Made by a program: the position numbers and the translations under genes
Source: Verrucomicrobiia bacterium
Lineage (GTDB): Bacteria > Verrucomicrobiota > Verrucomicrobiia > Limisphaerales > UBA1319
Length of the DNA stretch: 64,000 nt
Direction of reading: 5' to 3'
Assembly (NCBI GenBank): GCA_963664225.1
Contig: OY760937.1
Span: forward strand, 2,304,001-2,368,000
Shown here: positions 9,739 through 64,000 of the stretch, in pieces
How the letters are laid out: every line of letters begins with the position of its first letter
Numbering within the stretch: the first letter of the stretch is position 1
The notes under the pieces: model-generated
Told to the model about the DNA's origin: nothing
The model's input: the letters and a program-made list of their open reading frames with translations, nothing else
Database searches by the model: none

Positions 9739-12700
9739 TTACGGCACGACGCTTACGCGGTAGAATCCCTGGTCGGCGATTTTGTTGACCAGAACCCGCT
9801 TTTGCGTGGTGGTGGCGGTGACATTGGTTTCTGTCTGCCAGGCTCCACCAAGTGCGGTGATGCTCTCAACCTTGTATTGTTTGCCAGGCACAGTTTGGAA
9901 GTACATCGCCAATTGTCCATCGCCTGCAGGAGTTTTATCCCCTTCCATCAATGCATCCAGCCGAGGCACTTGCTCGCATATAAGCGCAGATTGCGCATTG
10001 GTGGGATCCGTCCCAGCCTGCATTTCCTGAAGGTTGTTCAAACCGTCATGGTCGGCGTCATCCGCCTCCGCGCTGGCGGAAGGATATCTATCAAGCAAAC
10101 CAGACGACTTTACCCATTCCTGATAGGTGGGTGGTTGGATCCATAAAGCGGTTGGGCGCCCCGCATAGGTCGTCCCCCAACCTGTGGCGCCAGCGCGATA
10201 ATAAACCGTCACTTTGGTGGCATTATCGAATATGGTGGGAGCTTCAAGCATTGGCGCATTTCCATCAAACAATGCGACGGCCAGGTTTGTGCAGTTGGCG
10301 AATGCAAAGGATCCGATATTCGTGACGCTGTTGGGGATGGTTACATTGGCCAGTCCGGTGCATTTGTAGAATGTAAAGCGAGGAAGCCTGGTGATTCCGC
10401 TGGAAATTATGGCGTTAGTCAGGTTGGTGCATTCAGCGAACGCTGACTGCGACATATTAGTGACGCCTCCGGGAATGGTGATGCCCGCCAGGCCACCGCA
10501 TTTGTTGAAGGCAAATGCCCCGATGCTGGTAACGCTGTTTGGAATTATGAGATTCGTCAGGCCAATGCAACCAGAATACGTCCCATTCCCAATGCTCGTG
10601 ATATTGTCGGGGATTGTGACATTCCCCAGGCTCACGCAATTAGTGAACATGGCATCCGCGAGATTGGTGATGCTTGTCGGAATGTTGACACCCATGAGTC
10701 TGCTGCAACCGTTGAATGCATAAGTTCCTATGTTGGTGACGGTGTTGGGGATCGTGACATTTGTCAGGCTGCCGCATCCGGCAAACGCCTGTATTCCAAT
10801 GGTCGTTGTCCCGATGGGAATGATATATTCTCCAGTCATGCCTAGTGGACCTTGAATCATTTGTGTCAGGCTTTTGTCAAATAGCACTCCGTCCACGCTG
10901 GCGTAGAGTGTGTTCCCCTCGTCCACTGCGATTGCCATAAGGTTACGGCAACCGTTGAACGTATAGAGTCCAATATTAGTCACGCTGGCCGGAATTGTGA
11001 TGGTCGTCAGACCGGTGCAGTTAGCAAAAGCGGAATTCTGAATTGACCTGAGGCCATTTGCCATCACAACATTCGTCAGGCTGATGCAACCATTAAAAGC
11101 ACTGCCACCGATATTGGAAATGCCGAGGGGCAGAATGATCTGCGTAAGTTTTTTGCAGTTGTAGAATGCCTGTCTCCCAAGGTTGGTGACACTGTTTGGA
11201 ATCAGGATACCTGTCAGGTTGTTACAATCTTGGAATGCAGAATCACCAATGCTCGCGGTCTCGTTCGGAATAATGAGAATAGTCAAACCGATGCAACCGT
11301 AGAACGCACCGGTCCCGATGCTGTTGACGCTGTTTGGAATGGTAATCCCCGCCAGATTGGTGCAGCCCAGGAACGTATTATCACCCATGTTGGTAACGCC
11401 ATTGGGGATGACCACATTCGTTAGGCGTATGTTGTATGCGAATGCAGAATTTCCGATTTTGGTGACTTGCTTTCCCTGAATGCTGTCTGGGATGGTAATG
11501 TTCCCGTTCGATCCGGTGTATGAGTTGATTGTCACAAACGAGCCTGATATGCTGTAGGTGTAATCGGTATCAATGGGCTGCTGGTTCCATATTGCCGTTG
11601 GCCGATCTGCAAAGGTGCCGCCCCAACCTATGGTTCCAAGGCGATAATATACGGTCACATTGGTTGCATTAACAAACCAGCCATAATCAGGAGTATATGA
11701 GGGGGCATCGCCTTCGAAATACACGCTCCTCAGACTGGTGCAGGAGGCAAAAACCCCAAATCCAAGGTTCGTAACACTGTTTGGGATCGTAATGCTTGTC
11801 AGGTTGGTGCAGCTCTGAAACGCATAATTCCCGATGCCTGACACACTCATGCCATTGATGGTATTTGTCAGAATCACATTGCCGCCGGGGCCTGTGTATT
11901 TTGTAATTGTGAGAGTGCCGCCAGATATGGAGTACTCGAAATCGCCCTGAACGGGCTGATCGGCCCATAAAGCCGTCGGTTGTCCTGAAAAAGTGGTTTT
12001 CCAACCTTCCGTTCCTGAGCGGTAATACACTGTCGTTTTTGAGCTTGCATCAAATACATCATAGGGCCAGGAAAGTGTCGGAGCGTTTCCCTCGAAATAG
12101 ACACCCGCCAATTGGGTGCAATAAGAGAAGACCGATGCACCGATTAATTTTAAACTTTCAGGGATGATCACACTTTTTAAATGGGTGCAGCTTTGGAACG
12201 CGCCAAATTCAATGTTTGTGACAGTGTTGGGAATCGTGATGTTTGTAATATTACTGCAGGCACTAAACGCAGAAATCCCGATGCTCATGACGCCATTTGG
12301 AATCGTGATATTCGTGAGCCTGCTGCAGTCAGTAAAAGCAGCTTGCCCTATTCTGGTCACACTGTTTGGCAGAGTAATAGCCGAAAGGTTGGAGCATCCC
12401 TTGAAAGAACAATCGTTAATACTTTTAATTCCGTGTGGGATGTTAATGCTTTGGAGGCTGGTACAGTTGTAAAATACATATTCTCCGATTTCGGTAACCC
12501 CGCCTGGGAGGGTGACATGTGTCAGACCTGTGCAACCTCCAAACGCATTATATCCCAAGCGGGCAAGGGTACCAGGCATCTCAATATTTGTCATGACGGT
12601 ATTGCCATAGAACGCACATACTTCAATGTTGGTAACACCATTGGGAACAATGTAGTCCCCAAAGCCAGGTCCTGTATATGCGATAAGCGTTGTCTGATTC

Positions 12701-55949: not shown

Positions 55950-58900
55950 TTAGATGCGAGCCGATGGGACGATGGGAGGGGAGGGCCGGTCAAGGCAGTC
56001 ACGAACGACCTTGAGAAGGCGGGATGGAGCGTAGGGTTTGGGCAGGAAATTAACCCCATCGGCCAGTTTGAAATCGCCTTCGACGGCTTCAACGCTGTAA
56101 CCGCTTGAGTAGAGCACCTTAAGGGATGGTTTGTCGGCCTGGCAATGCAGGGCCAGCTCGCGACCGTTCATGCCCTCCGGCATGACCATGTCCGTAAGCA
56201 GCAGGTGGATGTGGTCCTTGTTTTCCCCCCAGACTCCAAGAGCCTGAACGCCGCTCCCGGCCTCCAGGATCCTGTAACCGGCTTGCTTGAGGCAGCGGGT
56301 GGTCAGCACGCGCACCGTGGATTCGTCCTCGACGACGAGCACGGTTTCATGGCCGCCGTTGGGGGCGACAGCGACCGCCTGTTTGATGTCGCCGGAGGCC
56401 GATTCGTCGAGGGCGGGCAGGAACACTTTAAAGCTGGTGCCTTTGTTGACCACGCTCGAAACCTCGATCCAGCCCTGGTGCTGTTTGACAATGCCGTAAA
56501 TGGTGGCCAGGCCCAGACCGGTGCCTTTGCCCAATTCCTTGGTGGTGAAAAACGGCTCGAACAACCGGCTCAAAATGGTCCGGTCCATGCCGCAACCCTC
56601 GTCCGAGACGGACAGACAGACAAAGCGGCCAGGATAGCCATCCGGATGCCTCTGAATCTGTGCCCCATCCACAATGACCAGCTCGGTTTTCAAGGTGAGC
56701 CTGCCCCCCTTGGGCATGGCATCGCGGGCATTGACGGCGAGATTGATGACGACCTGGTCGATCATGCCCGCATCGGCCTTGATGGCCGGCAAACCGAAGC
56801 CGTAATTGAACTCGATGGCGATCTGCTCTCCAAGAAGACGATTGAGCATCCGGGCCAGATTCATGACCGCATCGTTGACATCCATTTGCTTGATCTGGAG
56901 CAATTGGCGGCGGCTGAAGGCCAGCAACTGCCGGGTGAGATTGGCGGCACGGTCGGCTGCGGCGTTGATCTCGCCCATGGCTTCGAGCACATCCGCGCTG
57001 GCGGTTTTCTCGGCCAGTTGCAATGTGGCGTTACCTTTGATGACGGTGAGAATGTTGTTGAAATCATGAGCCACGCCTCCGGCGAGCTGGCCCACCGCCT
57101 CCATTTTCTGGGCCTGCCGGAGCTGCTCCTCGAGTTGTTTGCGGCTGGAAATGTCGCGCACGGCGGCAATGATCCGAACCTGGCCATCGAACTCGCAGCG
57201 CTGAAGGCTCACCTCGGTCCAAAAATGCCGTTGAGCCTTGTCCCTGGCCAGCCATTCGAAATTTTGAGGGCCTTCTTTCAAAGCCTTGCGCAGATGGGCC
57301 TTGGCGGCATCGGCCGTGAATGGGGGCAGCGAAACCACCAGGGATTCCAAACCCAGCTCCCGCGCCTCCTTTAATGTGTAACCGTATAATTTGGCAAACC
57401 GGTGATTGACGTCCAGGATCTCCATTCCATCCGGGCCTTGATGAATCAGCAAGGCGTCGTTGGAGGTGTCGAAGATGGCGCGGTATTTTGTTTCCGAAGT
57501 CCGCAGCGCCTCCTCCACGCGCTTGCGTTCGGTGATGTCCTCCCAGGTCACGAGCACGCCTGTGGTGGCGCCCATGGCGTCCTGCAAGGGAATACGATCC
57601 GTGTCCACCCACATCAATTGCCCCTGGCTGTTGCGCACGGTGTCGATACTGTGGAAGAGGGGCGTGCCGGAGTTCATGACGCGGCGATCGGCGGCGATGG
57701 CGGCCTCGGCCTCCTGGTTGGTCTTGAACAGGTCGTAATCCGTCCTGCCCACCAGATCCCTGGGATCGTTAAATCCCGCAGTCTCGGCCTGGCGCCTATT
57801 GCAGCCGACGATGACGGAATTGCGGTCCTTCCAGAGAACCGCCTGGGGAATGTTGTCGATGATGACCCGCAACATGCGCTCGGACTCGCGCAGCGCGAGT
57901 TCGGATTTTTTTCGTTCGGTGATATCGCGGAAGAAGAGCGTGACCTGGCGCTCACCGGTGCGCACGCCGACCAATTCGTAGCTGCCGGAGATGGTCCCAT
58001 TGCGAAAGTCGAAGACCTCCGTTTCAAACAATTTGCCCGAATTCAACGTGGCGCGCAGGGCTTCGTTGACGGAAGTGTTGGCCAGAGGCGGAAAGGTTTC
58101 GTCCAGAGATTTGCCAATCAGCGGCTCATGATCGCGGCCCTGGATGCGATCGGCCGCGCGATTGGCTCCCTTGAACACGAAGGAATCGTCCTTTGCGAGT
58201 TCGAATTGGTAGGCGCCGAAAGGGGCGGCGTCGATGATCGCCCGCAAGGCCTTTTCGGAATGCGCCAGGGCGTCCTGCGATTTGCGCCGCTCGGTCACAT
58301 CGCGCGCGACGCCCAGAATGCCGGAGGGTTTGCCGGACGAATAGGTGACGCGGGTGTTGATGTCGAGATGGAGCACGCGGCCTGATTTGTCGAAAATATC
58401 CAACTCGAAGGGCGGCACCGTTTCCCCCGAAAAATGCCGTTTCATCACTCCTTTGACCAGGGCCTGATGCTCGGGAACGACGACTTGAAAAACATTGAGC
58501 TGCCGGGCCTCCTGGTCGGTATAGCCGGTGATTTTCTCAGCGGCCTTGTTGATGGAGGTGAAGCGCCCCTCCAAATCGTGCCGGTAAAGCAGGTCGTTGA
58601 CGTTCTCGTAAAGATCCCGATACCCCTCTTCCAGGACGGTCTCGCGTTCGATTTGCTCGCGCAGCAGCACGGTCTGGCGGCGGACCTGGCGGCGCAGGGC
58701 CCAAACCCAGATCATGACCAGCGCTGACAACAGCAGAACCGCCCCCAGGATCGCCAGAACCATCCCGGTGGTCAGCCACGGCATGCGGTCCAGCACGACA
58801 ATGTCGCGAGGACTGCTGACCAGAAGCTCAAAGAAGCGCGGGGTGCGATATTGATCGACCTTCACGGAACAAACGCCGGTGACATCCAGCAGGTTCCCAG

Positions 58901-60098
58901 CGCTGTATTGGGACAAATCAGCCTTTGAAATCGCCGTGTCCAGGACCGCTGAAAAAATCACATTATCCTGGCGCAGCAGAAACTGGGTCCGCTGCGAGCC
59001 GACGATGCAATTTAGAACGCGACCGGATATTCTCACTAACATGCCGTCATAACGGCCGGTCATGGCCTCCTTCGAGCTGACGATGCGAGGCTCCAACGGA
59101 AGCATGTTTGTGTTTACCGCAAAGCGCACGACCGCTTCATCCAACATGGCGCCAAAGGCGCCGCGGGTTGGAAAGGCCAACACCTCCACTGGAGAGCCGT
59201 TGGTCAAAGCCACGACATCACGCGCCTGGACTAATATTCCCCCCGTTGAGTCCTGAAGATAAAACTGATTGGTATTGTTTTGACGGGTGACCTGGCCAAG
59301 AATGGAAAGGCGGCGAACCGGTTCGTTCCGGATATCAAATTGATGAATGGCGGCGATGGTTTTGCGGGGGCCGTTCAAGGTGTTCAAATTGGAACCTTCG
59401 AGGACCTTTATGTGCGAAGGGTCGGACACCCAAAGCTGGCAGCCTGTATTGACTCCCAGGCCATTGACCTCAAGACCTGAAACACCGGAAAGTTCAAGAC
59501 GACAGTCAATCCACTTCTCCAATTGCTCCAAGGTGATGGTGCCATCTGGAATCAGCGCGCGAAAACGGTTGTTCGATGGTCCTTGCAGTTCGAGGACGAA
59601 ATGCCCCAACCGGTCGCCCGCAGAATAAAGGTATCCACTGACGGCTATATACTGGCTGTCGTATTTTCCGCCGGCAAACTCCTCGAATTTGGGATGTGGT
59701 GGAATGGGCCATGGGGTTCTATCCGCGAGCACCTTGAAACTGGAATTGACGAGGTAGCCCTGTGGCGCCAGTTCAGCCCGGACTTCAACCCGGTTGCCAG
59801 TGGCAATCTCCGGCAATTCCCTCAATTCCACATAAATGCCACCGGTCGAGTCCTGGATCATCAGCATCGGCCACAACGGACTATAGTAGGTAACTATCGC
59901 ATCGAGATGGACGAGCCTTTGGTTTGTGACTTCGACAGAGGCCAGTTTCCGAATCTGGGCCACATTGGTCAGAACGAGCCCCGCATTACCGGATGTCTGT
60001 CCGCAAAGCAGGCTGGCGGGCAAAAAACACAAAAGCGCGACAAGAAGGATTCCCAACATGCGTCCGCCGCGCCACGCGTTATGAGAGATCTGCGCCAT
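55950..60098 (-). CDS. Hybrid PAS-domain sensor histidine kinase/response regulator
   Basis: Repeated periplasmic modules (QDSTGGI), TM, four PAS-like domains, AQKMEAVGQLAGGVAHDFNN, FEPFFTTK, C-terminal receiver; TGATG overlap with the upstream gene. Confidence 0.92.
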   Translation of the reverse strand: MAQISHNAWRGGRMLGILLVALLCFLPASLLCGQTSGNAGLVLTNVAQIRKLASVEVTNQRLVHLDAIVTYYSPLWPMLMIQDSTGGIYVELRELPEIATGNRVEVRAELAPQGYLVNSSFKVLADRTPWPIPPHPKFEEFAGGKYDSQYIAVSGYLYSAGDRLGHFVLELQGPSNNRFRALIPDGTITLEQLEKWIDCRLELSGVSGLEVNGLGVNTGCQLWVSDPSHIKVLEGSNLNTLNGPRKTIAAIHQFDIRNEPVRRLSILGQVTRQNNTNQFYLQDSTGGILVQARDVVALTNGSPVEVLAFPTRGAFGAMLDEAVVRFAVNTNMLPLEPRIVSSKEAMTGRYDGMLVRISGRVLNCIVGSQRTQFLLRQDNVIFSAVLDTAISKADLSQYSAGNLLDVTGVCSVKVDQYRTPRFFELLVSSPRDIVVLDRMPWLTTGMVLAILGAVLLLSALVMIWVWALRRQVRRQTVLLREQIERETVLEEGYRDLYENVNDLLYRHDLEGRFTSINKAAEKITGYTDQEARQLNVFQVVVPEHQALVKGVMKRHFSGETVPPFELDIFDKSGRVLHLDINTRVTYSSGKPSGILGVARDVTERRKSQDALAHSEKALRAIIDAAPFGAYQFELAKDDSFVFKGANRAADRIQGRDHEPLIGKSLDETFPPLANTSVNEALRATLNSGKLFETEVFDFRNGTISGSYELVGVRTGERQVTLFFRDITERKKSELALRESERMLRVIIDNIPQAVLWKDRNSVIVGCNRRQAETAGFNDPRDLVGRTDYDLFKTNQEAEAAIAADRRVMNSGTPLFHSIDTVRNSQGQLMWVDTDRIPLQDAMGATTGVLVTWEDITERKRVEEALRTSETKYRAIFDTSNDALLIHQGPDGMEILDVNHRFAKLYGYTLKEARELGLESLVVSLPPFTADAAKAHLRKALKEGPQNFEWLARDKAQRHFWTEVSLQRCEFDGQVRIIAAVRDISSRKQLEEQLRQAQKMEAVGQLAGGVAHDFNNILTVIKGNATLQLAEKTASADVLEAMGEINAAADRAANLTRQLLAFSRRQLLQIKQMDVNDAVMNLARMLNRLLGEQIAIEFNYGFGLPAIKADAGMIDQVVINLAVNARDAMPKGGRLTLKTELVIVDGAQIQRHPDGYPGRFVCLSVSDEGCGMDRTILSRLFEPFFTTKELGKGTGLGLATIYGIVKQHQGWIEVSSVVNKGTSFKVFLPALDESASGDIKQAVAVAPNGGHETVLVVEDESTVRVLTTRCLKQAGYRILEAGSGVQALGVWGENKDHIHLLLTDMVMPEGMNGRELALHCQADKPSLKVLYSSGYSVEAVEGDFKLADGVNFLPKPYAPSRLLKVVRDCLDRPSPPIVPSARI

Positions 60099-60802
60099 CA
60101 GGGCAATTGGCGAATCTTGATGTTGCGGAACCACACCTCATGGCCGTGGTCCTGAAGAAGAATATGACCGGCACGCTTGCGGCCAAAGAACGAGGTCGTC
60201 TTGAATTTGCTCTTTTCGATCGCGGCCAAGAGTTCAGGGCTGCCCAGGTCATAGGCGAGGACCTGGACGCCGTTGAGCCAATGCCCGACATGGACGCCTT
60301 CCACGCGAATGCGGGTTTCGTTGAATCCGCCCACGGGCTTGAGATGGACGTTGGTGGCTCCCAGCACATCATAAAGACTGGCGGTGCAGCGTTTGGGCCC
60401 CAGTTTGGCCTCCGCGTTGTTCACGTCGTCCAAAATCTGATATTCCGGCCCGATGGCGCCATCCTTCTCCTGAATCAGGTATTTGATGCCGCTGTTGCAA
60501 TTGGTGCTGGCGCGCCATTCGCAGGAAAACTCAAAGTTATCGTACTGTTTGACGGTAATAATATCCTCGCTGCGACTTTTCGGCAGGACATGCAGACAAT
60601 CGTCCTCCACCGCCCAGCTTCTCGCTGGAAAATTCGTTTTGCCCAGGGAATGCCAGCCCTCAGGAGTTTTTCCGTCGAAGAGCGACTGCCATCCGGCTGA
60701 ATCCGCCGCATGGATGGACATGACCAAACCAGCGCATCCGGCAATCATCAGAACGCGACGGGAAAGCGATTGCCATCCCAAAAACAATCTCAGGTGCTTC
60801 AT
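60098..60802 (-). CDS. DUF1080 (3-keto-disaccharide hydrolase-like) protein
   Basis: LFDGK...NSGIKY...PEYQILDD...LQDHG..VWFRNIKI. Confidence 0.88.
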   Translation of the reverse strand: MKHLRLFLGWQSLSRRVLMIAGCAGLVMSIHAADSAGWQSLFDGKTPEGWHSLGKTNFPARSWAVEDDCLHVLPKSRSEDIITVKQYDNFEFSCEWRASTNCNSGIKYLIQEKDGAIGPEYQILDDVNNAEAKLGPKRCTASLYDVLGATNVHLKPVGGFNETRIRVEGVHVGHWLNGVQVLAYDLGSPELLAAIEKSKFKTTSFFGRKRAGHILLQDHGHEVWFRNIKIRQLP

Positions 60803-61122
60803 TGGATTTGAATTAAGCGTTTTTTATACCACCTCATTTTCCACGAAGCAAGCATACCCTCTCCACTTCAACAGTTTGAATGCGCTTTCCGAATGTCCGC
60901 AATTTTATCGTTATAACTCCTTAATATCTGAACCTGCCGACAAAAACCTCATTTTCAGTCGCAAACGATTTTCCATCGATCACGCCGACGATGCCGATGG
61001 CGGCGTGGCGCATGGCCCCCTCGAAAGCGCATTGTGCGCGTGGCTGAGGCGCTCCGGGTTTTGACCGGAGCAGATTCACCCGCAGGTGGGTGTGCGCCTC
61101 CGGTCCGAAAAAACGACAAACC

Positions 61123-62322
61123 ATGAAAACTTCCATTCCAACGTGCGCGACGCGTGGACTACGCGCGGACCGCCTGGTCTCCGCCGCCAATCGGTGGCGC
61201 GAGCAATACAATCCCCTGCGTCATTTGACGCTCGATCGGGCCGTGGCCCTGCTGGAGGCTTATCAGCGGGGGGACATGGCCGATGTGCAATGGACCTTTT
61301 ACTGCGTGGAACAGGCCGATCCGGAACTTTGCGCGCTGGTGGAGCGGCGGTCCAGCGCGTTGCTGGCCCTGGACTGGACGATCAAGACCTGCGGGGGCGC
61401 GGATTCCACGCTGGCCCGGGAACAGGTGGCCGCCCTGCGCGAGGCCTACGAAGGGATCGATAATTTTTACGAGGCGATGGATCACCTGGCGCTGGCTGCG
61501 TTCCGGGGCTTCGCCCATCTGGCAAAGAACGGCGACGCGCACGGTGGCATCCGTCACCTCGAAATTCTGGATCAATGGAATGTGGCGCGGGAGGGACTGC
61601 GCGGTCCCTGGAGATACAATCCCGAGGCGCGCCCCGCTCCGTATCGGGCGCTGGACGCGCGGAACACCCTGGACCCGCGCCAGTGGATCATCCGCGAGGT
61701 GAAGCGACCGATCAACCGGATCGGGCTCATCAAATACGCGCGGGCCAATGTGGCGGAAAAGGATTGGGCGGCGTTTGTCGAGATTTACGGTCTGCCGGGC
61801 GCGGTGATCATCGGCCCACCCAACGTGGCCCCGGAGGATGCCCCGCACTACGAAACGCAGGCCGCGCTCGTGGCCGAAGGCGGCAGCGGGTATCTGCCCA
61901 ATGGCGCAGGTGTCCAATTCTTCAGCGGACCGCGGATCACACAGCCCTACCGGGATTACCTGCGCTATTTGTCCGAGCAATTGGTGCTGGCCGGAACGGG
62001 TGGCATTCTCACGATGCTGACGGCCAGCGGCACGGGCACGCTGGCGGGGTCGGTTCACGCCGAGACCTTCCACCAGATCGCCCGCGCCGAGGCCCGCGTC
62101 ATCAGCGAAATCTTTCAAGACCAGTTCGACCGGTATTTGCTCGATGCCGCGTTTCCCGGGCGTCCGCACCTGGCCTATTTCGACCTGGACCCCGGCGAAG
62201 AGAAAAACCAGGAGGCGGTCATCGACCAGGCCGTCAAACTGGCCCAGGCGGGTTACCGCATCGATCCGAACGAATTGAGCGAGAGAACCGGTTTCCGGCT
62301 TTCCGAAAAACAAACCCACTGA
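61123..62322 (+). CDS. Mu gp29-like phage portal protein (DUF935)
   Basis: RSSALLALDW.I, DWAAFVEIYGLP..I, GGILT...GTLAGSVHAE match DUF935 portal motifs. Confidence 0.8.
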   Translation: MKTSIPTCATRGLRADRLVSAANRWREQYNPLRHLTLDRAVALLEAYQRGDMADVQWTFYCVEQADPELCALVERRSSALLALDWTIKTCGGADSTLAREQVAALREAYEGIDNFYEAMDHLALAAFRGFAHLAKNGDAHGGIRHLEILDQWNVAREGLRGPWRYNPEARPAPYRALDARNTLDPRQWIIREVKRPINRIGLIKYARANVAEKDWAAFVEIYGLPGAVIIGPPNVAPEDAPHYETQAALVAEGGSGYLPNGAGVQFFSGPRITQPYRDYLRYLSEQLVLAGTGGILTMLTASGTGTLAGSVHAETFHQIARAEARVISEIFQDQFDRYLLDAAFPGRPHLAYFDLDPGEEKNQEAVIDQAVKLAQAGYRIDPNELSERTGFRLSEKQTH

Positions 62323-62329
62323 CTCCAAA

Positions 62330-63382
62330 ATGCAAAACACTCCCATGAACAATCTCATTGAAAAAGATGTTTTTGAATTGCCCGCCGACGGCTGGTTTCA
62401 CCTGGCCCCGAGCGGCGAACATATTCACCCCGCGACGGGTGTGACCCAAGTGATCGATGACGCGGCGCTGCAAGCGATCTGCGCACAATTCGAAGCCGCT
62501 TCATCGTTGCCGGGATTCAGCGGCGCGCTGATCGATTACGATCATTTCAGCTATGACCCGCGGCGTCCCAGCGAGGCGGCGGGCTGGATCGTCGCCCTGA
62601 AAGCGGAAACCGGACCGACGCCGCAGCCGGGTCTGTGGGCCAGAATCCGCTGGACGCCCGAGGGCCGGAGCGCCGTTGAAGCCGGGCGCTACCGTTTTCT
62701 CTCGCCGGTCTGGCTGGCGGGGGATTGCGAGACGCTGGATGCGGCGGGGCGCAAACGCCTGCGACCGCTGCGGCTGGATTCGGCCGGGCTGACCAACAAC
62801 CCGAATCTCAAAGACCTTGCGCCGCTCTCCAATCGGAATTCGCCATTCGAGAATCAATTTCACTCCAACATCACCCTTAACAATCAAGACAAGGACTCCA
62901 TGAAAAACATGCAAAACATACATCAGGCATTGGGCTTAAGCCCCGAGGCCGCCGAGGAACAGGCGGTGACGGAAATCGTTCAACTCAAAAACCGCGCCAC
63001 TGCGGCAGAGTCGCGGATTCGCGCGCTGACGGAGGAAAACCAGGCGCTGGCCGCGTTGCGGGCGGACGCCGATCTGGAGCGTTTCCAGAACCGGTTCTCG
63101 CCTGCGGCCCGTGACAAATGGCGCGCGGCGCTTCTGGCCAACCGGCAGGCCACGCTCGAATTGCTCGAGTCGCTGCCGGTTCCCGCCAGCCTCCCAAACA
63201 CACAGGCCCCGCAACACCTGCGCGCGGCCACAAAGACACCCGACAGCCGCCCGCTGGCCAACCGCGCCGCCGAGCAGCGCCAGGCGGTGCTCGAATACAA
63301 GTCGCGGCATCAATGCGGCTGGCAACAGGCCTGGGACGCGCTGCGTTCCCAGACACCCGAACTGTTCAACGGACAACCCTGA
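62330..63382 (+). CDS. Mu-like prohead protease with C-terminal scaffold region
   Basis: LIDYDH, AAGWI, WT..G...V..GRYRFLSPV, GLTNNPNL (Mu gpI family). Confidence 0.88.
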   Translation: MQNTPMNNLIEKDVFELPADGWFHLAPSGEHIHPATGVTQVIDDAALQAICAQFEAASSLPGFSGALIDYDHFSYDPRRPSEAAGWIVALKAETGPTPQPGLWARIRWTPEGRSAVEAGRYRFLSPVWLAGDCETLDAAGRKRLRPLRLDSAGLTNNPNLKDLAPLSNRNSPFENQFHSNITLNNQDKDSMKNMQNIHQALGLSPEAAEEQAVTEIVQLKNRATAAESRIRALTEENQALAALRADADLERFQNRFSPAARDKWRAALLANRQATLELLESLPVPASLPNTQAPQHLRAATKTPDSRPLANRAAEQRQAVLEYKSRHQCGWQQAWDALRSQTPELFNGQP

Positions 63383-63441
63383 AGTGTCCGCCATTCACAC
63401 GTTTCACAACCCACAACAAAATCAACACCACACAATAAATC

Positions 63442-63840
63442 ATGAATTCCATTGCCCGTGAAAATGCCGTCGTCTCTCTCACTCCCACCGCCGATCACAC
63501 CGGCAAGGAGGGGTATCTCGTCGATGTGGATGCCGCCGAAAAGGCGGCGCTCATCGATGCCACCACCGACCTGCCCTTCGGGATCATCCTCGAAGGCGCA
63601 ACGACCGCCAGCAAGAGCGCCATCGCCGTGGCCGCCGGCGGGTTCAAGGGAACGGTGCGCGTGAAATTGGGCGCAGCCCCGGGAACCGTGAGGGCGGGCG
63701 TCCTTCTGCAAACCAACAACGACGGCACGGTGCGCGCGGATGCCGGAAGCGGCTCGCGCGTGCTGACGGCCCAGGCGCTCGAATCGGGGGCGGCGGGTGA
63801 ACTCATCGAAGCCGTCCTGTTCAAACCAATCAGCCTCTAA
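63442..63840 (+). CDS. Capsid cement/decoration protein (DUF2190-like)
   Basis: Small Ala/Gly-rich beta protein ending ALESGAAGELIE, located between protease and capsid genes. Confidence 0.65.
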   Translation: MNSIARENAVVSLTPTADHTGKEGYLVDVDAAEKAALIDATTDLPFGIILEGATTASKSAIAVAAGGFKGTVRVKLGAAPGTVRAGVLLQTNNDGTVRADAGSGSRVLTAQALESGAAGELIEAVLFKPISL

Positions 63841-63918
63841 AAAACTGGCAACAACTGGCGCGGGGAATTTTTCACCGCGCAAACCAACCATCACTTAAAC
63901 AAAACACTAATCACATTT

Positions 63919-64000
63919 ATGGGAGCAAAAACCACAGCCGCTTATAATCCGACACTGACCAATTACGCCCAGGGCCTTTCGCAGGACCTGGCCAGCGCCA
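63919..64000 (+). CDS. Probable major capsid protein, N-terminus only (runs off the right edge)
   Basis: MGAKTTAAYNPTLTNYAQGLSQDLASA; position after the cement gene and a PxLT motif seen at capsid N-termini. Confidence 0.5.
   Translation, partial: MGAKTTAAYNPTLTNYAQGLSQDLASA

Follow-up and report, generated by a model that had tools for sequence, protein, structure and literature searches.

We describe phage-derived head and DNA-packaging genes in a Verrucomicrobiia genome (G000; 5.78 Mb, one contig C1, mean GC 56.0%) that are best explained as a chromosomally fixed, split and tail-less Mu-type capsid and DNA-packaging system, a reading in which we place about even confidence. As the head genes are intact and conserved, the packaging genes lie about 220 kb away and no tail genes were found, this soil-type Verrucomicrobium probably makes capsids that are filled with DNA, have no tail and serve the bacterium itself, rather than carrying an ordinary dormant virus. 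By computation the genes prove intact, under selection and syntenic, and their set recurs elsewhere as one compact cassette. The system resembles a gene transfer agent (GTA) or a capsid-forming satellite and satisfies the definition of neither.

Head genes and a distant terminase operon

The window, i.e. the whole analyzed stretch of 64,000 nt, ends within the head gene cluster. The features are listed below; positions preceded by C1 are those of the contig and all others those of the window.

60098-60802, minus strand: DUF1080 gene (PF06439, E 4.8e-43), divergent, 320 bp from the portal ATG at 61123
60965-61052, plus strand: upstream element, a T-rich stretch and three 9-bp-phased GCCGA-type repeats
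61123-62322, plus strand: Mu-type portal, 399 aa from the ATG (410 aa for the longest ORF, from GTG 61090)
62330-63382, plus strand: Mu gpI-type head maturation protease with a scaffold-like C-terminal part, 350 aa
63442-63840, plus strand: small conserved head protein, 132 aa (phrog_673 'head scaffolding', 2.2e-4)
63919-64000, plus strand: major capsid protein (MCP), first 27 codons, continuing to window-equivalent 64839
C1:2367919-2368839, plus strand: whole MCP gene, 306 aa (phrog_1005 major head protein, 5.2e-40)
C1:2365123-2370073: head locus (locus 1) with portal, gpI-type protease/scaffold, small head protein, MCP, hairpin, orf278 and orf97
C1:2142587-2146459, minus strand: terminase operon (locus 2) with t304, t153, an 85-aa protein, TerS-like and TerL

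The preliminary description had placed the start of the head genes about 320 bp from the divergent DUF1080 gene and had named a portal, a protease and a probable capsid gene, all of which Pfam and PHROG matches confirm. The portal matches Portal_Mu (PF06074, E 2.3e-37, profile positions 7-335 of 336) and the portal family phrog_113 (1.2e-26). It is without the C-terminal extension of its phage relatives, whose portal ORFs measure 487-616 aa (80-200 aa longer); one of these relatives shows a weak Mu-F match at the C-terminus of its portal. The protease matches Mu-like_Pro (PF10123, E 1.2e-29), the head maturation protease family phrog_328 (2.5e-34) and, on residues 254-312, phrog_2976, while the MCP profile matches 3bjq in the PDB ('phage-related protein', 5.6e-24). 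The label 'cement' given earlier to the small ORF between them could not be verified, because it has no Pfam match and matches the PHROG 'head scaffolding' family only weakly; against the PDB it reaches a 'capsid decoration protein' at E 0.36 only. This protein (cluster c1) always lies between protease and MCP across 18 related loci, and it is a candidate decoration- or scaffold-like protein. The best phage matches are Mu-like phages at 23-28% identity.

Beyond the window, a strong terminator-like hairpin follows the MCP gene (window-equivalent 64857-64882), and the cluster ends with orf278 and orf97 before a host DAHP synthase gene, so that the module is enclosed by host genes, DUF1080 at one end and DAHP synthase at the other. 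This excludes for the locus the case named at the outset as refuting a domesticated module, in which the remainder of a complete Mu-like prophage would follow downstream, and the view that this is not an ordinary prophage holds. The structure model of orf278, from which the fold class alone was used, has a lectin fold at moderate confidence (pLDDT 68, pTM 0.76). The claim of a host-like composition stood for codon usage, in which the module genes score between the 21st and 95th percentile of host ORFs and thus inside the host range (two G000 genes outside the module, one ORF6N and one MuA-like, fall at the 0-1st percentile), but not for G+C content, which at 60-65% exceeds the genome mean.

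In Mu-like phages the terminase genes lie directly upstream of the portal and gp30 (Mu F) follows it. The window holds no terminase and no gpF, as had been described: the sole Terminase_6N match of the genome lies outside it (C1:2143454-2143810), and Mu F (PF04233) has no match in the whole genome. The guess of an unlinked terminase proved right, as a TerS-like/TerL operon exists about 220 kb from the head module. Its TerL matches PF03237 partially (positions 67-176 of 215, E 4e-6) and four PHROG TerL families, which together span both halves of the protein, and it contains the segments KSVRIGWT, VGLDEFA and GFDVA/GDETG/HCDIA, which we take to be the Walker A-like, Walker B and nuclease motifs; all are conserved in the related genome G008. 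The TerS-like protein has an HTH, t304 is a lipoprotein-like membrane protein (in the ESM Atlas it matched unnamed viral clusters only, with scores of 0.90-0.92, a weak lead) and t153 is a TM plus coiled-coil protein. The operon is surrounded by PEP-CTERM, CBS and other non-phage genes. The TerL-portal adjacency of the phage relatives is broken in all four genomes that carry the modules.

Conservation, descent and the upstream repeat

Four genomes of two genera (G000, G001, G003 and G008) carry both modules in intact form; the modules were not found in 6 of the 10 family genomes, whose completeness is 75-98%. An MCP was observed in four of the nine other family genomes, with 89% identity in G001, 76% in G008, 74% in G003 and 46% in G006, the last belonging to a different element; the portal is present in three of the nine. 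Searching four genomes for TerL yielded it in three, which are the carriers of the head module. In a metagenome relative with 86% nucleotide identity (L093) the module is syntenic at the same site. Frames are open and without stops in every copy, the copies of genus g3 are without orf278 and orf97, and the clean module boundaries recur in both genera. Purifying selection acts on the intact ORFs noted earlier, both in the four carrier genomes and in the syntenic metagenome relative. Across pairs dN/dS ranges from 0.04 to 0.45 (portal 0.09-0.20, protease 0.11-0.36, small head protein 0.10-0.45, MCP 0.04-0.13) and dS resembles the values of host genes nearby. Comparing G000 with L093 (dS 0.30-0.59), we obtained dN/dS values of 0.036 for MCP, 0.086 for the portal, 0.107 for the protease, 0.10 for the small head protein, 0.175 for orf278 and 0.28 for orf97, next to 0.17 for the host neighbour DUF1080. 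Between G003 and G008 the module has a dS of 0.12-0.33 against 0.09-0.22 in the host flanks (dN/dS 0.13-0.45), and between G000 and G001 every gene is intact at a dS of about 0.8-1.5.

A tree of MCP sequences groups the four copies in one clade (100/100) with the topology (G000,G001),(G003,G008), in agreement with the genera, and the MCPs of a satellite-like sister group are near-identical across genera. This pattern, in which the MCP clade mirrors the genera and dS is close to that of the host flanks, would fit vertical descent and is drawn from only four carriers. LepA of G000 is 82-83% identical to that of three other genera alike (G001 gave no match), and as these identities are equal, nothing shows g1 and g3 to be sister genera; the module may have been transferred between genera rather than inherited from a common ancestor. 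The head locus is rearranged between G003 and G008, and G008 has the two modules side by side, within about 9 kb. A strain comparison over four sequencing runs returned contigs of the same strain and low-depth fragments only. Low-depth contigs from runs X4 and X5 show a 4-base insertion and two 2-base deletions in the portal gene, one contig each at depth 4-7; these changes could be errors, or related strains could have broken copies.

The element upstream of the head genes is a degenerate copy of a repeat that also lies 5' of the terminase operon. Within G000 the two copies are weakly similar (z=3; 40 of 2000 shuffles score equally high) and within G001 they match strongly (z=24); a repeat model made from G001 only finds the terminase copy of G000 at E 3.6e-6 and its head copy at E 2, rank 3. 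The repeat core is conserved in L093. A dedicated operator was rejected, as the shared element is instead a member of a repeat family that is dispersed over the genomes, G001 having 6 copies and G008 16; because of this dispersal its regulatory role is putative and a dedicated regulon is not proven. Two further genes are preceded by the genus-specific repeat. One is a lone TerS-like paralogue (G008:C49), which we rejected as a phage locus since its neighbours are host-like and include no phage genes, and the other (G003:C60) encodes a possible phage replication-type protein, presumably so by its N-terminal motif. Scanning for sigma-70 promoters gave sites no more numerous than in shuffled sequences. 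The module had also been called host-controlled, for which an apparent link to a hybrid histidine kinase did not withstand the reciprocal-best-hit test. Such kinases lie near the module in G000, G001 and G003, with the adjoining 1394-aa kinase as best G000 match, but G001, G003 and G008 contain 26, 42 and 46 paralogues and the reciprocal best hits lie elsewhere, so that we treated the adjacency as chance. A response regulator occurs within the TerL operon in g3 only.

Search for tail genes and compact relatives

For tail and head-accessory parts we searched G000 with five Pfam families and with the genes of the related loci themselves. The sheath, baseplate, Mu-F, capsid and tape-measure families (PF04984, PF04865, PF04233, PF05065, PF10145) gave 0 matches each, and the positive controls matched. 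With tblastn, 615 ORFs of 19 related loci returned the two modules and unrelated islands only. When 40 cluster HMMs were run against 62,094 six-frame ORFs, their matches fell on MCP, small head protein, TerL, protease and portal only, apart from one cluster in an alternative frame within the MCP gene and two marginal matches at E 0.003-0.008. The 106 ORFs found 3' of MCP in phage-like relatives gave one marginal match (E 7.9e-4). Neither the relatives' AAA_25 helicase HMM nor their adaptor-like cluster c23 has a match in the G000 genome, no integrase or primase/helicase lies near either module, and these family searches revealed no resident helper phage. Many proteins of the related phage-like loci are without any family match; the absence of a tail is a negative result of homology searches, by which a novel tail or adaptor could be missed.

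Two other regions of G000 were considered and rejected. A MuA/MuB-like pair at 5.746-5.751 Mb sits in a low-GC island without head or tail genes, 3.4 Mb away. A same-strand block of 37 kb (2.737-2.775 Mb), examined for tails because two of its large genes are common to a relative's locus, is a conjugative element (TrbI, T4SS, TraG-like). Its defence genes comprise a CD-NTase with patatin, E1/E2 and JAB, AbiE, TIR, and DUF1156 and DUF499 genes with a helicase.

The gene set of the two modules was observed as a single unit in three metagenome loci (L096, L103 and L104), in the order t304-t153-(TerL)-portal/protease-small head protein-MCP-orf278(-orf97). Gene set and order are thus the same, whereas the cassettes are contiguous and the G000 modules are split. 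The MCPs of these cassettes are just 23-27% identical to that of G000, and in two of them portal and protease are fused. The compact cassettes stop right after orf278/orf97 beside host genes, which in L096 are CcsA/CcsB-like and follow directly. In L096 and L103 a divergent gene for a 233-aa protein with an HTH and S24-type, repressor-like features adjoins t304, and its G000 homologue is far off (3484236-3484781); flanks and repressor-like protein were named by PDB sequence matches or by reading the sequence. The sister-group elements (L035-L051) resemble capsid-forming satellites with defence cargo, namely a DUF1156 methylase with an SNF2/PLD helicase, AAA_15/21 with RloB and a DndC-like gene, and L051 carries an integrase. 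These metagenome cassettes and the satellite-like, defence-carrying elements in Opitutaceae-type genomes suggest a larger undescribed family.

Known systems, rival explanations and significance

With Mu-like prophages (Mu, BcepMu, phiE255, RcapMu-type) the system shares the Portal_Mu, Mu-I protease and MCP families. The membrane proteins preceding the terminase in locus 2 are a further likeness, as lysis genes come before the terminase in Mu. It differs in that no MuA/MuB adjoins it, the module has no Mu F, G or tail genes and the terminase lies about 220 kb from the portal instead of upstream of it. GTAs are complete host-owned particles, while capsid-forming satellites are mobile and steal tails. 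Known GTAs are inherited with the host under purifying selection, are expressed under host regulators from dispersed loci, encode tails and head-tail connectors, and package random host DNA, too little to hold their own genes, which is transferred to recipients. RcGTA and similar systems resemble the G000 system in having phage-derived structural genes that are chromosomally fixed in dispersed loci without replication or integration genes, and the pattern found here is consistent with vertical descent and purifying selection. However, GTAs have a complete tail for delivery, homology searches found no tail, adaptor or baseplate homologue in G000, and the G000 head lineage is Mu-type; the earlier term 'GTA-like' therefore misses one defining feature, as no tail genes were found.

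The cf-PICIs encode TerS/TerL, portal, protease and MCP themselves and with these make capsids, but they have no tails; they were reported in Proteobacteria and Firmicutes (PMC10085698), and it has been demonstrated for them that tail-less, DNA-filled capsids are released and later joined to phage tails (10.1101/2025.02.11.637232). The G000 genes agree with cf-PICIs in comprising TerS/TerL, portal, protease and capsid without a tail. They differ in being Mu-type, unlike the described cf-PICI lineages, and in lacking near either module the integrase, alpA/merR-type regulator and primase-replicase that lie at one end of a cf-PICI; head-tail adaptor, connector and HNH genes were not found in G000 either. 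Moreover, a cf-PICI is one contiguous island, whereas the G000 system is split over about 220 kb and tracks host taxonomy, which precludes its movement as a unit. Among the texts that a full-text search of the literature returned, no such system was described in the portions available.

One rival explanation is a full particle system, either a dispersed GTA or a scrambled live prophage, with unrecognised tail, adaptor and lysis genes elsewhere. It would agree with the dispersed loci of known GTAs, with the fast divergence of tail proteins and with a search covering five tail/head-accessory families and the relatives' own genes, many of whose products lack a family match. We nevertheless regard it as unlikely, since a complete genome without a match to sheath, baseplate J, tape measure, Mu F or HK97 capsid, the absence of a clear match to genes 3' of MCP in the closest phage-like relatives (one marginal) and the independent cassettes ending beside host genes argue against it. 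Slightly less probable is an anti-phage or phage-parasitic device that upon infection diverts phage tails or packaging and protects the population, gene transfer being a by-product: the sister elements are satellite-like with defence cargo, and the repeat before a TerS-like paralogue and a possible phage replication protein would fit trans-activation by phage factors, but the G000 modules have no defence genes beside them, a resident helper phage was not found and the interference mechanism is purely inferred. That the modules are non-functional remnants of a decayed Mu-like prophage or satellite, still intact by chance, we consider improbable. The missing tail, Mu F, transposase and integrase, the separation of the two halves, the degenerate promoter element of the head genes, the possible frameshift variants in low-depth contigs and the six family genomes without the module would be expected of remnants; yet all 10-11 genes are open in every copy despite the large G000-G001 dS, dN/dS is low (for MCP, portal, protease and small head protein below that of the adjacent host gene), codon usage is ameliorated and the boundaries are clean in two genera.

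An active cf-PICI-like satellite that still moves between cells as a unit is very unlikely, even though such relatives exist in Verrucomicrobiota and the two modules are adjacent in G008: they are far apart on the single G000 contig, integrase and primase/helicase are missing nearby, the AAA_25 helicase HMM has no match in the genome, and MCP divergence tracks host genera, unlike the near-identical satellite MCPs. The least credible reading, with hardly any weight left to it, is a protein nanocompartment, i.e. an encapsulin-like shell without DNA packaging. MCP is related to HK97-fold-type capsid proteins (3bjq) and no tail was found, but portal, maturation protease and TerS/TerL co-occur under selection in all four carriers and no cargo gene is apparent. 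We know of no encapsulin system with a portal, maturation protease or terminase, whereas portal and TerL are present and selected in the G000 carriers; the 'nanocompartment' of the preliminary description is a poor fit to a conserved portal and a terminase with catalytic motifs.

If the split, tail-less capsid and packaging system works as we propose, procapsids would assemble upon induction on the portal with the protease/scaffold, TerS/TerL would load them with DNA and the membrane proteins t304/t153 would assist release. As no tail, adaptor, replication or integration genes were found, the particles would carry mostly host DNA and could be delivered only via tails borrowed from a phage, as in capsid-forming PICIs, or along some other route, perhaps with participation of the lectin-like orf278. 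A more specific reading, which we put forward tentatively, is a 'tail-less GTA': some Verrucomicrobiota would long ago have domesticated a Mu-type machine for capsid formation and headful packaging, which they keep in two unlinked operons. It would derive from widespread 8-10 kb tail-less cassettes (membrane proteins, terminase, head genes and lectin-fold protein), carry host DNA and use pirated phage tails or orf278 for delivery. To our knowledge no GTA has been described in the phylum Verrucomicrobiota; if true, this reading would mean that capsid-forming satellites have a counterpart fixed in the chromosome and that genes are exchanged by a new route. Taken together, if particles are made, the system would represent a host-fixed, split and tail-less form between GTAs and capsid-forming satellites, would bring Verrucomicrobiota and the Mu head lineage into the known range of domesticated phage particles, and would be a case of a selfish capsid-forming element turning into a host trait.

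Head gene cluster and its borders

The genome under study (G000) is a single contig of 5.78 Mb, and the window corresponds to G000:C1:2304001-2368000. The preliminary description had placed phage head genes 320 bp from a divergent DUF1080 gene, and the ORF positions and the Pfam and PHROG matches agree with this: four ORFs of the window follow one another head to tail, all on the plus strand.

Genes of the head cluster and its borders (window positions)
60098–60802, divergent from the portal gene: DUF1080/PF06439 gene, 320 bp to the portal ATG
61123 (ATG) or 61090 (GTG) to 62322, plus strand: portal; Pfam Portal_Mu, E 2.3e-37
62330–63382, plus strand: Mu-I-type protease/scaffold; PF10123, E 1.2e-29
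63442–63840, plus strand: small head protein, 132 aa; weak PHROG 'scaffolding' match, no Pfam match
63919 to past the window end, plus strand: major capsid protein (MCP), 306 aa; PHROG major head protein, 5.2e-40
Beyond orf97, convergent: DAHP synthase gene; PF00793, 1.9e-74

The MCP profile also matched PDB 3bjq at 5.6e-24. A strong hairpin and then a T-run lie directly 3' of the MCP gene, and orf278 and orf97 come after them. Since host genes (DUF1080, DAHP synthase) stand on both sides, the head cluster is bounded and consists of six genes. A full Mu-like prophage running on downstream, which the preliminary description had named as the case against it, is excluded, as only the MCP gene, orf278 and orf97 precede the host genes. 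In the genome read beyond the window, the DAHP synthase gene is followed by an ORF6N-domain gene, an LRR/NHL protein, FeoB, a DDE transposase and a hybrid kinase. The ORF6N/antirepressor-like gene (window-equivalent 67848–68468, minus strand; 7848–8468 of L002, the collected head region; PF10543, 4e-28) lies 1.8 kb past the head module, has a codon usage at the 1st percentile of the genome, is not present at the locus of G001, a genome of the same genus, and is probably mobile debris without relation to the head module. On single low-depth contigs of the sequencing runs X4 and X5, the portal gene carries a 4-base insertion and two 2-base deletions (L002 2075, 1162 and 1573); assembly errors or broken copies of related strains could account for them.

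For orf278 a structure model was built from 12 sequences (pLDDT 68, pTM 0.76), in which a helical N-terminus is predicted to be followed by a jelly roll of the concanavalin/LamG type. The best PDB matches were trans-sialidase lectin domains, neurotoxin binding domains and a pilus lectin, and our guess is that orf278 sits on the particle and binds sugar.

Unlinked terminase operon and upstream repeats

The preliminary description had suggested looking for an unlinked terminase, and one was found within a predicted operon. A TerL-like gene adjoins the head genes in G008, which together with G003 forms a second carrier genus (g3); its G000 homologue lies at C1:2142587-2144284 on the minus strand, about 220 kb upstream of the portal gene. 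This TerL is the sole Terminase_6N match in the genome and matches four PHROG TerL families, together spanning the ATPase and nuclease halves. On reading the protein we noted the stretches KSVRIGWT and VGLDEFA and the acidic GFDVA/GDETG/HCDIA, which we take to be ATPase and nuclease motifs; G008 keeps all of them. Four genes lie 5' of TerL in one operon-like run.

Genes 5' of TerL in the terminase operon
t304: lipoprotein-like signal and C-terminal TM segments
t153: N-terminal TM segment, coiled coil, weak DUF2730 match
t85: further gene of the run
t194: HTH protein in the small-terminase position

A group II intron reverse transcriptase/maturase gene (G000:C1:2134638-2136149, plus strand) is located 6 kb past the operon, and a reverse transcriptase of this type also comes after the cassette of the metagenome contig L104. 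In both g3 genomes a response regulator gene follows TerL. The adjacency of a hybrid kinase was considered as a regulatory link and rejected when the reciprocal test failed. A 1394-aa multi-PAS hybrid histidine kinase is encoded at 55950–60134 of the window (minus strand), with 26, 42 and 46 paralogue matches (E<=1e-40) in G001, G003 and G008.

In G001 the 90 bases 5' of the portal ATG resemble those 5' of the t304 homologue (local score z=24, equalled by 0 of 2000 shuffles), and the element contains a T-run and, in 9-bp phase, the word GCCGAT three times. With a model from G001 alone, the best genome-wide match in G000 was the terminase-operon copy (E 3.6e-6); the head-locus copy of G000 is degenerate (z=3) and is kept in the metagenome contig L093. 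The two operons of g3 have another element in common, in which the word GAGTCCA occurs twice in 9-bp phase (z=13 and 11). Both elements are dispersed, genus-specific repeats (6 copies in G001, 16 in G008 and 4 in G003; 0 for reversed control patterns), each copy about 50–140 bases 5' of an ATG. Four of the six G001 copies (contigs C53, C95, C137, C143, C150 and C187) are near contig ends; 3' of the C150 copy lies a fragment of 52 codons that is similar to the 5' end of the portal gene, and a copy on C49 of G008 precedes a lone TerS-like paralogue. A wider regulon might use the repeats as promoters, a phage-type activator might target them, or they may be mobile repeats. Tandem short G-rich units (CTGAGGT/CTGAGGGCAGAGG-like) occupy positions 1–165 of L015, the G008 locus, at the start of contig C43 and directly 5' of the head module.

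Spread, arrangement and selection

Among the nine other family genomes the MCP was detected in four, with an identity to G000 of 89% in G001, 76% in G008, 74% in G003 and 46% in G006, where it is part of another element, one that carries MuA/MuB genes. The portal was detected in three of the nine, and TerL in the same three out of four genomes tested. G001 holds all six head-locus genes and g3 the first four. The flanks of the module are host-like and vary between carriers. In no carrier does TerL lie upstream of and in the same direction as the portal gene, which is the order of phage-like relatives. In G008 a gap of 0.4 kb separates the two modules, which are convergent; other DNA occupies this breakpoint in G003, and G001 carries the modules on separate contigs, where TerL is bordered on either side by no less than 8 kb of other genes.

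The contig L093 is 86% identical to G000 in DNA over 5968 bases, DUF1080 gene included, and its six ORFs are all open. With dS of 0.30–0.59, dN/dS was 0.036 for MCP, 0.086 for the portal, 0.107 for the protease, 0.10 for the small head protein, 0.175 for orf278 and 0.28 for orf97, compared to 0.17 for DUF1080. Between G000 and G001 (dS about 0.8–1.5) every gene is still open. Module genes of G003 and G008 differ by dS of 0.12–0.33 (dN/dS 0.13–0.45) and three host flanking genes by dS of 0.09–0.22. Within this comparison (L015 against L016, the G003 locus) dS is 0.33 for the small head protein and MCP and 0.12–0.15 for portal, protease and TerL; the higher values may reflect recombination, or differing mutation and selection on shell genes. 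The host-like composition reported earlier holds for codon usage, as the module is inside the host range, with clearly foreign G000 genes at the bottom.

On vertical inheritance, a check proposed in the preliminary description, the signs are mixed: the low dN/dS values agree with purifying selection, and in the MCP tree the four copies form one clade (100/100) that branches as the genera do. However, the module was not found in 6 of 10 family genomes, which counts against descent from a common ancestor. LepA is 82–83% identical between G000 and each of three other genera (no match in G001), so that sister status of the two carrier genera is not demonstrated.

Tail search, relatives and nature of the system

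Pfam families for sheath, baseplate J, Mu F, HK97 capsid and tape measure gave 0 matches each in G000, while control genomes were positive. We gathered 33 related loci from species genomes and used 615 ORFs of 19 of them as tblastn queries, which matched G000 only in the two modules and in unrelated islands. HMMs of 40 protein clusters, each present in at least three related loci, were compared with 62,094 six-frame ORFs of G000 and matched only MCP, small head protein, TerL, protease and portal, except for one alternative-frame cluster within the MCP gene and two marginal matches. The 106 ORFs found 3' of MCP in five phage-like relatives gave one marginal match. By homology, this negative evidence suggests that G000 has no tail genes. 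A 37-kb same-strand block sharing two large genes with one relative was considered as a tail region and rejected, as it is a conjugative element with defence genes. This block (G000:C1:2737540-2774647, outside the window) carries T4SS/TrbI/TraG-like conjugation genes and a defence island with a CD-NTase with patatin, E1/E2 and JAB (CBASS-like), AbiEi/AbiEii, a TIR protein, a DUF1156 methylase, DUF499 with HEPN and a 1314-aa SNF2/NOV_C helicase.

The closest deposited phages are Mu-like (23–28% identity). In the phage-like loci L053 and L059, TerS, TerL, portal, protease, small head protein and MCP are followed by more co-directional genes, with PHROG tail fibre and tail assembly matches in L053. 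A satellite-like group of Opitutaceae type (L035, L038, L039, L044, L045, L047, L051 and others; MCP at about 10000–10900 of each locus) begins with a CHC2 primase and/or AAA_25 helicase, PDDEXK, DUF3102 and TerL, and continues with a Portal_Mu protein (weak Mu-F match at its C-terminus), protease, small head protein, MCP, two 64-aa ORFs and variable defence-type cargo: a DUF1156 methylase with SNF2/PLD helicase, a type III-like R-M system, AAA_15/21 with RloB, and a DndC-like gene. No tail genes occur within 10 kb, a tyrosine integrase adjoins host genes in L051, and the MCPs are nearly identical across genera, with two copies in one complete genome. These elements resemble capsid-forming satellites and would make up a Mu-lineage family of them in Verrucomicrobiota; such satellites are so far reported from Proteobacteria and Firmicutes (PMC10085698). 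MuA-like (835 aa) and MuB-like (538 aa) genes were seen in a low-GC island (47–54%) of G000 beside lepA-lepB (C1:5746327-5763000, outside the window), together with an IrrE/M78 peptidase gene and a ThiF/JAB gene. The syntenic island of G006 (L017) has in addition a small head protein and an MCP (46% identical), and on G008:C4 (L071) a portal of 373 aa and a protease fragment precede a similar pair. For a Mu-like element this gene order is odd.

A metagenome search with orf278 as query yielded 157 relatives, and 80 of them were retained. In three of these, a single compact unit is formed by t304, t153, (TerL), portal/protease, small head protein, MCP, orf278 and (orf97).

Compact cassettes on metagenome contigs
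L096, 1–9059: portal and protease fused
L103, 1–8244: portal and protease fused
L104, 5199–11003

Their MCPs are only 23–27% identical to that of G000. The L096 cassette leads straight into CcsA/CcsB-like genes, and in L096 and L103 a 233-aa gene stands divergent beside t304, in which we read a putative XRE-type HTH joined to a putative C-terminal half of S24 type (LexA/CI-like). Since the same gene set is contiguous in these contigs, the two G000 loci are a split copy of that cassette, and orf278 and orf97 are members of it.

The analysis supports the preliminary view of a streamlined, retained particle module instead of an ordinary prophage. In contrast to a Mu prophage, the G000 system shows neither terminase-portal adjacency nor Mu F, transposase or tail. 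GTAs are defined by a tail and by transfer; for the G000 system no tail genes were found in the homology searches. Literature on GTAs in Verrucomicrobia yielded no such system among the matches listed, judged by title and abstract opening. Tail genes elsewhere in the genome that went unrecognised in the homology searches are an unlikely explanation, and a defence or interference role, with defence-type genes seen as cargo of the satellite-like loci, is slightly less likely again. That the modules are an inert remnant we regard as improbable, with their open ORFs and low dN/dS. Compared to capsid-forming satellites without own tail (cf-PICI; PMC10085698; 10.1101/2025.02.11.637232), the G000 system lacks an integrase, a primase, adaptors and the layout as a single island, and a satellite that is still mobile seems quite improbable; a nanocompartment, for genes that include portal and TerL, is the least credible reading. 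We give about even credence to a tail-less system for capsid formation and packaging that is split in two and fixed in the host, and that would act as the capsid part does in a cf-PICI or GTA. The G000 loci are a copy, now split, of an old self-contained tail-less cassette, and the relatives place the system between phages and satellites.
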